Of a stretch of DNA of 64,000 nucleotides, positions 7,017 to 9,724 are shown piece after piece. The position numbers and the translations under genes are program-made. The DNA lies in NCBI RefSeq assembly GCF_003790525.1, contig NZ_CP033635.1, one strand, 5' to 3'. The stretch is from Escherichia coli (GTDB lineage Bacteria; Pseudomonadota; Gammaproteobacteria; Enterobacterales; Enterobacteriaceae). How positions within the stretch are numbered: the stretch's first letter is position 1; the number at the start of each line of letters is the position of its first letter. The notes below the pieces were generated by a model. It did no database searches. It had not been told where the DNA came from and was given only the letters and a program-made list of their open reading frames with translations.

Positions 7017-7190
7017 ATGGGTCCTCCCGGTGGAGTGACCTGTCACGGGGCGGGAGCATCGCGGAAAAAGGCTGGTTTTTGCATTTTCATGGCGGCGGCA
7101 GCATGTGTGATAATTCATTGATAATTAAAAATTATTTCCGTTTTCACCTGTACAATTTTTTTTCTTCCCTGTCATTAGACCAGTTTGCAA
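7017..7190 (+). other. cos site copy A (lambda-like cosQ-cosN-cosB); cosN-like 12-mer GGGCGGGAGCAT at 7048-7059
   Basis: Aligns to the remembered lambda cos junction ACGGGTCCTTTCCGGTGATCCGACAGGTTACG/GGGCGGCGACCT/CGCGGG. It is about 170 bp and homologous to copy B. Confidence 0.7.
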
Positions 7191-7277
7191 TTAATTGAAA
7201 TATATAAATAAATCAGTTTTTCACCTGCCTGGTGGAGTTGCCTGTGTCAAAACGCGTTCAGATGGCGGGATATTTAT

Positions 7278-7300
7278 GCCGGATTTTTTCCGGCTTTTTT
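7278..7300 (+). terminator. Rho-independent terminator
   Basis: GCCGGA-TTTTT-TCCGGC followed by TTTTTT. Confidence 0.75.
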
Positions 7301-7401
7301 GTATCTGAATCTAATTAATCTGTTTTTATGATAAAAATATATTTATCTACCACTTTTATCGATCAATAATGTTTGTGGTTTAACCATTCAGGAGATTTTT
7401 A

Positions 7402-7611
7402 ATGAGTAGCATCAATGACCTGAACACAGCTGACACAAACGGCGGATCCGTTCATCTGGACGCTAAAACAGTAATGCGCATCAAGCAGTACAGAATAGAT
7501 CACGCCGTTAATCTACCCGCGCAGCCATTGCCAGGTGTGGCGCAAATTGTCAGACACGCAGTTAACGCGTGGCTTGATAAGAATGGTTTTGCATCTGGGG
7601 GTGAGCAATGA
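7402..7611 (+). CDS. Hypothetical protein (69 aa) upstream of the capsid gene
   Basis: AGGAG lies 8 nt upstream. The stop overlaps the capsid start (ATGA). Confidence 0.55.
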   Translation: MSSINDLNTADTNGGSVHLDAKTVMRIKQYRIDHAVNLPAQPLPGVAQIVRHAVNAWLDKNGFASGGEQ

Positions 7612-9524
7612 ATCGCTGGTACACCATTAAAGCGGCGGATGTTCGCGGAACGGCGGAGATATCCATCTATGAGGAAATTGGTGGCTTTGGTATTACCGCG
7701 AAGCAGTTCACGGAAGACCTGAAAGCCCTTGGCGATGTTTCACATATCAATCTGCGGATCCATTCACCAGGTGGCGACGTGTTTGAAGGTATCGCCATCT
7801 ATAACCTGCTACGGAATCATCCGGCAGACATTACGGTTTATATCGATGGCGTGGCGGCTTCAATGGCTTCGGTCGTCGCAATGGCTGGCGATCGCGTTGT
7901 TATGCCGGAGAACGCCATGATGATGATCCATAAGCCGTGGGGTATCTCTGGCGGAAATGCTGGCGATATGCGTGATTATGCTGATTTGCTGGATAAGGTG
8001 GAAACAGTGTTAATCCCTGCTTATGCCAGAAAAACAGGAAAATCAGCACAGGAAATTGCCGCCATGCTGGAAGATGAAACCTGGATGGACGGGAAAGAAT
8101 GCCTTAAGCACGGTTTTGCTGATGAATTGTTGCCATCTGTCAGAGCAATGGCGCGAATTGAATCGAAACGCACAGGAGATTTTTTACATATGCCGGAAAC
8201 CATTAAGGGAATGATTACCCCGCCGAAATCACAGGCAAAAAACACCATTACAGGCTACCAGGAGCGCATTAATGGCATTAAAGAAATTTTTAGCATGTTC
8301 GGCAACCAGTACGACGGGATCAAAATGTCGTGCCTTGAAGATGCATCCTGTACGCTGGAAATGGCCCGGGAACGTCTGCTTAACGAAATGGGTAAAAACC
8401 ACACACCAACAAATAAAAATATCCCGTCTCATATTTATGCCGGAAACGGGAACATAACAGGCGATGCGATTCGCCAGGGCCTTTATTCTCGTCTTGGGTA
8501 TGAGCGTTCTGAGCGTGGCAATCCTTACGCGATGATGAGCCTTTTTGAAATGGCCCAGGCGTCACTGGTTGATCGCGGTATCAGTGTTGGCGGTTTTTTA
8601 AATCGCTCGCAGGTCGTTAATGCAGCTTTTACACACAGCAGCAGTGATTTTTCTCATATTCTGGCTGGCGGTGCTGAAAAATCAGTGCTGAAAGGCTGGC
8701 AGGACAGCGGTGAAACGTTCCAGAAGTGGACGCGTAGCGGTTCACTTTCAAACTTTCATGAAGCAAAGCGCGTTGGTCTGAATGGATTTTCAAAGCTGGA
8801 TAAAGTGCCGGAAGGCGCCGAATACAAATACATCACCACCAGCGATAAAGGTGTGCCTATTGCGCTGGCAACATACGGGAATATTTTTTCTGTTACCCGC
8901 CAGGCCATTATTAACGATGACCTGACCCAGTTAACTACAATCCCCATGGCGATGGGGCGTGCAGCCGCCAGAACAGTAGGTAATCTGGTGTATCTCCTGT
9001 TAACCGGCAATGGCAAATTCACGGATGGTAAGGCGCTATTCCATGCCGATCATAAAAATCTTATTGCGAAGGATATGGACATGGAGGGGCTTAACGAAGC
9101 CCGTAAGCTGATGCGCCTCCAGGAGGACGCTAACGGCGATTCGCTGAATATTACCCCTGCATTTGTCCTGGTCCCCGCCGCGCTGGAGTCTGCCGCACAT
9201 CGCGCCATTCTGTCATCGTCATCACTCTTTCCGGTTGATAGTGAGGGCACTATCAATCAGAACCCCGGCATCATTAACGTGGTGAAAGATATGGCTGAGG
9301 TTATTGTTGAGCCACGTCTTGATAAGAACAATAACAAAGAGTGGTATGTAGCCGCAGCGAAGGGGATGGACACGATAGAGGTCGCTTATCTTGATGGTAT
9401 TGATACGCCATATCTTGAGGAACAGGAGGGCTTTACTGTTGATGGTGTCGCCTGGAAGGTGCGCATAGATGCAGGTGTTGCAGCTCTCGATTATCGTGGA
9501 CTACTGAAATCGAGTGGAGCATGA
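7608..9524 (+). CDS. Prohead (ClpP/S14-like) serine protease fused to an HK97-fold-type major capsid protein
   Basis: The N-terminus has INLRIHSPGGDVFEGIAIYNLL...VAASMASVVAMAGD...MMMIHKPWG, the ClpP-like head protease pattern. The C-terminal ~350 aa resemble phage major capsid proteins (...GFTVDGVAWKVRIDAGVAALDYRGL). Confidence 0.8.
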   Translation: MNRWYTIKAADVRGTAEISIYEEIGGFGITAKQFTEDLKALGDVSHINLRIHSPGGDVFEGIAIYNLLRNHPADITVYIDGVAASMASVVAMAGDRVVMPENAMMMIHKPWGISGGNAGDMRDYADLLDKVETVLIPAYARKTGKSAQEIAAMLEDETWMDGKECLKHGFADELLPSVRAMARIESKRTGDFLHMPETIKGMITPPKSQAKNTITGYQERINGIKEIFSMFGNQYDGIKMSCLEDASCTLEMARERLLNEMGKNHTPTNKNIPSHIYAGNGNITGDAIRQGLYSRLGYERSERGNPYAMMSLFEMAQASLVDRGISVGGFLNRSQVVNAAFTHSSSDFSHILAGGAEKSVLKGWQDSGETFQKWTRSGSLSNFHEAKRVGLNGFSKLDKVPEGAEYKYITTSDKGVPIALATYGNIFSVTRQAIINDDLTQLTTIPMAMGRAAARTVGNLVYLLLTGNGKFTDGKALFHADHKNLIAKDMDMEGLNEARKLMRLQEDANGDSLNITPAFVLVPAALESAAHRAILSSSSLFPVDSEGTINQNPGIINVVKDMAEVIVEPRLDKNNNKEWYVAAAKGMDTIEVAYLDGIDTPYLEEQEGFTVDGVAWKVRIDAGVAALDYRGLLKSSGA

Positions 9525-9530
9525 CAACAA

Positions 9531-9554
9531 GGGCGGCGATAGCCGCCTTTTTTT
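9531..9554 (+). terminator. Rho-independent terminator
   Basis: GGCGGC-GATA-GCCGCC followed by TTTTTTT. Confidence 0.85.
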
Positions 9555-9555
9555 A

Positions 9556-9724
9556 CGGGTCCTCCCGGTGGAGTGACCTGCCACGGGGCGGGAGCGTCGC
9601 GGAAAACGGCTGATTTTTGAATTTTCATGGGACACCACCACATCAATTAACATGCTGAAAAGTAAAATAAAAATTGATTTTCACCTGTCCCATTTTACTT
9701 TTTGTGGGACATCTGACCAGTTTT
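9556..9724 (+). other. cos site copy B; cosN-like 12-mer GGGCGGGAGCGT at 9586-9597
   Basis: Same architecture as copy A, including TTTTCACCTG (9678-9687) and GACCAGTTT. It starts immediately after a terminator, as copy A does. Confidence 0.7.

Follow-up and report, generated by a model that had tools for sequence, protein, structure and literature searches.

Positions 163-11002 of a 64,000-nucleotide stretch of Escherichia coli DNA (contig NZ_CP033635.1, assembly GCF_003790525.1; the whole stretch is called the window below) comprise a phage-inducible chromosomal island (PICI) on the plus strand, which has no terminase gene and carries three cos sites. This satellite is rather probably packaged through these phage-derived sites, which are of the lambda class and would differ in their specificity for the small terminase subunit (TerS), serving several helpers. 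On its sequence, the island is assigned to the family of EcCICFT073 (Fillol-Salom 2018 ISME J, 2019 Mol Cell), and the sites, designated A, B and C, to the lambda-class (gpA-terminase) cos sites. The sequence identities, the homologies to phages, the placement of the elements and the lack of terS and rpp genes, all described below, are direct observations.

Site A (7019-7251, plus strand) and site B (9557-9765, plus strand) stand in direct orientation on either side of the capsid operon (7402-9524, plus strand). An earlier note on this DNA had described two direct copies of a lambda-type cos site around this operon in a phage satellite, which is supported here, and the sequences quoted in it were all found at their places; the direct pair of its title stands, but the inverted third copy, site C, had been omitted. 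Its estimate of about 170 bp of homology between A and B is right as well, the first half being strong and the second weak. Between 7011-7092 and 9549-9630, 76 of 82 bases are identical; beyond this block, A 7093-7190 and B 9631-9724 (about 95 nt) agree in 61 of 101 alignment columns (about 60%). The alignment of these second halves scored 15, compared with -12.4 +/- 5.0 for shuffled sequences, and none of 3000 shuffles reached 15.

The sequence GGGTCCT, reportedly the 7-bp cosQ of lambda (Wieczorek and Feiss 2001), occurs exactly in A (7019-7025, plus strand), B (9557-9563, plus strand) and C (9944 to 9938, minus strand), starting 29 nt before a 12-mer, compared with 30 nt in lambda. This 12-mer is GGGCGGGAGCAT in A (7048-7059, plus strand) and GGGCGGGAGCGT in B (9586-9597, plus strand) and C (9915 to 9904, minus strand). 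The order ...CCACG / GGGCGGGAGCGT / CGCGG fits a cosN, 8 of the 12 bases being equal to the lambda cohesive end and CGCGG following it as in lambda; the predicted cosN of the three sites would yield 12-nt cohesive ends GGGCGGGAGC(G/A)T. The lambda junction given in the earlier note agrees with J02459. Local alignment of the lambda segment from -40 to +50 scored 22 with A and 24 with B; for shuffles the score was 7.5 +/- 1.3 (maxima 17 and 19), and none of 5000 reached the observed scores. The similarity to lambda cos, for which alignment had been named beforehand as the refuting test, is significant by this measure. A blastn comparison of A, B and C with the lambda junction (word size 7, E <= 1e-3) returned no match; the similarity sits in short blocks and required local alignment with shuffles.

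As in lambda, an integration host factor (IHF) consensus is found downstream of cosN in A (7111-7123) and C (9842-9854), here at +61 to +75; it is missing from B. The TTTTCACCTG boxes pointed out previously are present, exactly three in the 64 kb with 0.18 expected: two in A (7141-7150 and 7218-7227, plus strand) and one in B (9678-9687, plus strand). The R sequences of lambda are absent from the aligned cosB regions of the island; the candidates in their place are the TTTTCACCTG boxes and a triplet-repeat box at the R3 position, located at 7091-7103 (plus strand) in A, 9631-9641 (plus strand) in B and 9871 to 9860 (minus strand) in C. Each direct copy is immediately preceded by a terminator or terminator-like stem, as the earlier note had also observed. 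The T-run of the intrinsic terminator after perC (AGCCGGAGCAATCCGGCT + TTTTT, 6994-7016, plus strand) abuts A; an identical terminator in EcCICFT073 has no cos behind it. Site B is abutted in turn by the T-run of a terminator-like stem (GGCGGCGATAGCCGCC + TTTTTTT, 9532-9554, plus strand) downstream of the capsid gene; the terminator scan gave this stem on the minus strand only, and the plus-strand T-run was read from the sequence. A second terminator (7278-7300, plus strand) closes the captured segment of cos A.

Site C (9785-9944, minus strand), with an nhmmer core match at 9872-9951, is 86% complementary to B over 86 nt, and 218 nt separate the two arms. According to the end points of the phage homologies, the B-C interval consists of two cosB regions that meet tail to tail at a junction of about 19 nt (9766-9784), and no open reading frame (ORF) lies between them. 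The B/C inverted repeat (9556-9945) lies directly upstream of a conserved 99-aa ORF, and a similar inverted pair flanks rppA in EcCICFT073; a transcript across the repeat could form a long hairpin. An origin of B and C by simple inversion between inverted cores was considered and set aside: a product-like site (left part of B joined to right part of C, plus strand) exists in E. coli EC42405, but the second site is absent there.

All three sites have close counterparts in phages. Site A, a complete phage-type cos, is 90.2% identical to phage Tritos over 234 nt and 88.8% identical to cdtI over 233 nt, the homology running from cosQ through the terS start codon and the first ~7 terS codons (remnant at about 7232-7251, plus strand). 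Site B matches the cos of an E. coli Ch1 prophage with 89.1% identity along 211 nt without gaps, up to a point just ahead of the DUF1441 terS of that prophage, and site C is 91.5% identical to phi458 over 165 nt from cosQ into cosB and about 90% identical to mEp460. In cdtI, Tritos, HannyBb, mEp460, phi458 and the Ch1 prophage, the stretch of 89-92% identity extends from cosQ to just before terS with the same 12-mer, and terS and terL follow the site. In the island, the homology breaks off at cosQ to the left and at or just before the terS start to the right, and no terminase gene comes next. The phage segments homologous to the cosB regions of the island are situated directly upstream of terS, and the TerS-binding elements within them are putative. 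Large terminases of the gpA family, as in lambda, were found in the cognate phages: TerL of cdtI has GpA_ATPase and GpA_nuclease domains, and its TerS belongs to DUF1441, unlike the Nu1 of lambda. The TerS proteins of the three matching phages are 38-58% identical to one another.

The records of cdtI (47,021 bp) and Tritos (46,360 bp) start exactly with GGGCGGGAGCGT and end with ...CCTGCCACG; as putative termini, these give the junction predicted from lambda. The paper mentioning Tritos says nothing about its termini, and in the Ayreon announcement cos was merely predicted, from TerL phylogeny. The record of mEp460_4F5 was rejected as evidence on ends: it starts 5 nt before the 12-mer, and the sequence there is altered. 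A scan of IMG/VR with a 21-mer returned mostly prophage-derived contigs, the ends of which are therefore uninformative on virion termini; these loci were used for the cross-table of TerS and boxes described below. With a profile of the 90-nt cos core, about 30 prophages of Enterobacterales and Pasteurellaceae each gave one site, about 4.4 kb ahead of the ClpP-capsid gene, and wherever annotation was checked, the site lies upstream of terS.

The triplet-repeat box (GGC, CAC, CAT or CAG repeats) recurs at bp ~44-56 from the nick in the cos sites of about 160 loci, close to the R3 interval of Murialdo and Feiss at bp 48-65 (PMC9026076). It reads GGCGGCGGCAGCA in A, cdtI and Tritos, GACACCACCAC in B and the Ch1 prophage, CGTCATCACCAC in C and mEp460, and CATCATCATCAT in most other genera. 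In 139 cos-terS pairs, the box type tracks the N-terminal TerS cluster. Within the cdtI-like cluster, the N-terminal TerS motif HRD goes with GGCGGCGGC (34), NRG with CAGCAGCAG (4) and DRK with GACACCACC (2), the last pairing being found in two genera, E. coli and Erwinia. The three-residue motif is a candidate recognition helix, and box and motif together are a candidate recognition code for DUF1441 terminases. This covariation, which is a correlation, supports the view that A, B and C would address different TerS variants. The sites may accordingly be seen as a panel that would let three helper lineages package the island.

The earlier note had explained the departure of the cosB sides from lambda by a satellite-specific cosB serving a redirected helper terminase. 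We regard this explanation, for which an Rpp-TerS complex or a satellite TerS would be the model, as improbable. The box GACACCACCAC of B resembles ACACCACCACCAC of EcCICFT073 cos1, which lies within bp 48-65, proposed as the Rpp-binding R3-PICI by Murialdo and Feiss (PMC9026076), and relatives of the island encode TerS beside cosB regions of a non-helper type. However, the box of B is about 7 bp nearer to cosN than that of cos1, and tblastn with RppA and four TerS types (Nu1-type and DUF1441 included) gave no match anywhere in the 64-kb window; the B-C interval, where such a gene could stand, has no ORF. Nor are the cosB regions unlike those of phages, since each of the three has a counterpart with 89-92% identity upstream of a phage's or prophage's own terS. 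The departure of the cosB sides from lambda is explained by the matching phages, which belong to another lambdoid group, with DUF1441 TerS and gpA-type TerL.

The closest published system is EcCICFT073, in which cos1 and cos2 are both functional, as demonstrated by plasmid transduction and deletions (PMC6092414), and cos1 is read by an RppA-TerS complex (PMC6739421). Placed by means of the supplementary sequences, cos1 lies on the plus strand upstream of rppA, and cos2 on the minus strand just before an ORF of about 95 aa. The published pair is therefore inverted and matches B and C in position, not A and B: B is the positional equivalent of cos1 and C of cos2. Both islands have the att site beside phoQ, the same gene order and more than one lambda-class cos, with a plus-strand cos after the capsid module and an inverted cos upstream of the ~95-aa ORF. 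EcCICFT073 differs by the lambda 12-mer GGGCGGCGACCT, by capsid and decoration genes of the lambda type, by rppA between the sites and by having no cos at the A position, whereas the present island has the cdtI-type 12-mer, a ClpP-capsid fusion, an empty B-C interval and one more complete cos ahead of the capsid operon.

Staphylococcal islands SaPIbov5 and SaPIbov4, as well as laboratory cosmids, are likewise non-phage replicons moved via the cos of a helper. The phage family of SaPIbov4 and SaPIbov5 is different, being HNH-dependent cos phages, and SaPIbov5 makes small capsids via Ccm. Two same-orientation cos sites about 2.5 kb apart in one replicon had been called unusual, which is not supported: apart from the two functional sites of EcCICFT073, SaPIbov4 has two putative ones (PMC6092414), and the arrangement A-capsid-B occurs in at least 7 islands. 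PICIs with several cos sites have thus been described before, and the island mainly extends the picture of EcCICFT073 to a second cos/terminase family. The arrangement with three sites and three specificities and the covariation of box and TerS are modest new details.

Packaging of the island could proceed as follows. After helper induction, the island would be excised and replicated to concatemers, as can be supposed from its family. The helper terminase (DUF1441 TerS and gpA-type TerL) would bind the cosB fitting its TerS and nick cosN, cleavage at the sites being predicted from their elements. Packaging would run rightward from A or B and leftward from C, and cos sites would be passed while the head is underfilled. 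The cut would be made at a cosQ-cosN of the same orientation after about four units (43.3-45.8 kb), so that multimers would be packaged. Four units amount to 43,264 bp and the distance from A to B over four units to 45,802 bp; the helper genomes measure 44.5-47.0 kb. For packaging started at A, the first cos in this size range would be A (four units) and the next B (four units + 2,538 bp), while packaging from C would run in the opposite direction, with only other C sites as terminators.

Terminases of the lambda type reportedly leave a downstream cos uncut until the head is almost filled (Feiss and Siegele 1979), and the size limits of cosmids are about 78-105% of the genome. The distances of 2.5 and 8.3 kb given in the earlier note are correct (A to B 2,538 bp, B to A 8,278 bp, unit 10,816 bp). 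Packaged units of these sizes, which it had regarded as a difficulty, are not expected, because terminases would pass cos sites until the head is nearly full; DNA in EcCICFT073 virions is phage-sized, and its authors concluded that cos sites are skipped (PMC6092414).

The main rival of this explanation is that a single site works, most likely A, and that B and C are relics of a swappable cassette which has lost its gene and left two cosB stubs. This is possible, though rather unlikely. In relatives, the gene after the B-position cos varies (rppA, Nu1-type terS or DUF1441 terS), and in EcCICFT073, MSHS133 and TUM1886 it stands between inverted cos sites; in the present island, the interval is merely two abutting cosB regions. 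The exact B-C arrangement was found in no complete E. coli genome at >= 80% coverage, and the related PICIs of other genera carry only one cos, which is located downstream of the capsid gene. Against relics it must be set that B and C have kept an intact cosQ and the consensus 12-mer, together with 165-211 nt of identity at phage level that reaches into cosB; decay is unlikely to spare exactly the functional span. In lambda, cosQ, cosN and I2 reportedly suffice for termination (Cue and Feiss 2001), so B would still act on packaging begun at A, which also speaks against this rival.

Several observations weigh against packaging through all three sites. Deletion of cos2 raised the transfer of EcCICFT073 (PMC6092414), which means that extra cos sites are not always beneficial. 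The 12-mer of A departs from the phage consensus at base 11 (GCAT instead of GCGT), the A-position copies of relatives reading GCGG, and such departures might weaken nicking or the joining of ends. A cosB of the B type ahead of terS is found in one E. coli prophage only, and the terL of this prophage is frameshifted. Finally, B and C could be left over from a lost terS or rpp cassette, as set out above. Packaging through three sites is preferred in spite of these points, and the three sites would probably give the island a wider helper range.

The extra sites could also act as decoys, their helper-type cosB titrating the terminase or provoking unproductive cleavage and thereby interfering with the helper. 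PICIs generally interfere with their helpers (PMC6092414, PMC6739421), and the known interference gene rpp is absent from the island, yet three helper-like cos sites are present. Competition for the terminase would, however, arise as a by-product of packaging through the sites as well, and the two are not exclusive; as the explanation of the arrangement, decoys seem highly improbable.

The direct pair A-capsid-B recurs with a spacing of 2,523-2,540 bp in the islands mentioned above, at phoQ, at cspD/clpS, at tRNA-Pro/yejM and within the terL of a prophage, as well as on two IMG/VR contigs. Window positions 6900-10400 are covered to >= 80% by 73 complete E. coli genomes. Cos types change places among relatives: the B type occupies the A position in Z1323CEC0004 and, in TUM1886, the C position. 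In TUM1886 (L092; 10067, 11056), a lambda-type cosN GGGCGTCGACCT on the plus strand before a Nu1-type terS is accompanied by a cdtI-type cosN on the minus strand. The B-position site of MSHS133 (L004, 11602) is a hybrid with a cdtI-type cosQ side or left half and a lambda-type right half. These mixed sites suggest recombination or end-joining at cosN between cos families. In E. coli EC42405 (L003, NZ_CP043414), a near-identical PICI at 1822-12514 is inserted within the terL of a cdtI-type prophage; its capsid fusion is 99.2% identical to that of the present island, and the prophage's own cos matches copy A. This arrangement corresponds to the published 'helper-embedded satellite' configuration.

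The capsid operon consists of a 69-aa ORF (7402-7611, plus strand) and a fusion of a ClpP protease with a major capsid protein (7608-9524, plus strand; Pfam CLP_protease and Phage_capsid_4). Copies of the fusion in other E. coli PICIs are 94-99% identical to it, and those of PICI type from Trabulsiella, Kluyvera, Yersinia and Rahnella 70-79%; with the fusions of cdtI, phi458 and the EC42405 prophage, identity is as low as 60%. Judged by these identities, the fusion points to a long-lived capsid lineage specific to satellites, and its role is possibly the formation of small capsids.

The remaining genes of the island are those of a PICI: an integrase ORF (188-1438), AlpA (1813-2001), DUF4222 (3791-4078), an AAA_25 helicase (4075-5481), SSB (6294-6704) and PerC (6715-6987), the capsid fusion being the only virion gene. 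The 10,816-bp unit is delimited by the att core GGTGTAGTTAATGGTGTAGTTAAT at 163-186 and 10979-11002, a core also present at attL of EcCICFT073 (L006:7885), and phoQ (11084-12544, minus strand) adjoins both islands. The conserved ORF of 93-99 aa downstream of C (9954-10253, plus strand, probable start at 9969) has an upstream region overlapping the cosQ side of C. EcCICFT073, MSHS133 and Cn5 have an ORF in the corresponding position that is 71-89% identical to it, and a Pfam search with the ORF of the present island gave no match.

Between this ORF and attR, the non-coding stretch 10380-10850 contains about 10 short perfect hairpins, and its predicted RNA fold has -179 kcal/mol, compared with -125 +/- 5.8 for shuffles (z = -9.3). 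Direct repeats of 44 nt (10386-10429 and 10798-10841, 89%) border the stretch, and a 54-nt tandem unit lies within it. Rfam returned nothing at the gathering threshold for 1-16000 and nothing at E <= 1 for 10250-11050. The stretch may represent a structured RNA or else some accessory element. The right end of the island, proximal to phoQ and including this stretch, is about 97% identical to several E. coli genomes, in four pieces.

Taken further, the island could be a 'multi-key' satellite, which dispenses with Rpp and TerS and combines three complete cos sites taken over from helper lineages of the cdtI, Ch1 and mEp460 types with distinct TerS specificities; in PICIs of this kind generally, the interval flanked by cos would be a swappable cassette for packaging specificity, and the triplet-repeat box would form an R3-like code for DUF1441 terminases; this is quite possible, although we would not call it probable. 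If so, any of three common types of lambdoid prophage could package the island. PICIs packaged by cos carry virulence and defence genes among enterobacteria, and the helper range sets the reach of an island. If each site answers to a different terminase specificity, this range would be readable from the cos repertoire of the island, and the DUF1441-type terminases, little studied although frequent in E. coli prophages, would gain a candidate recognition code.

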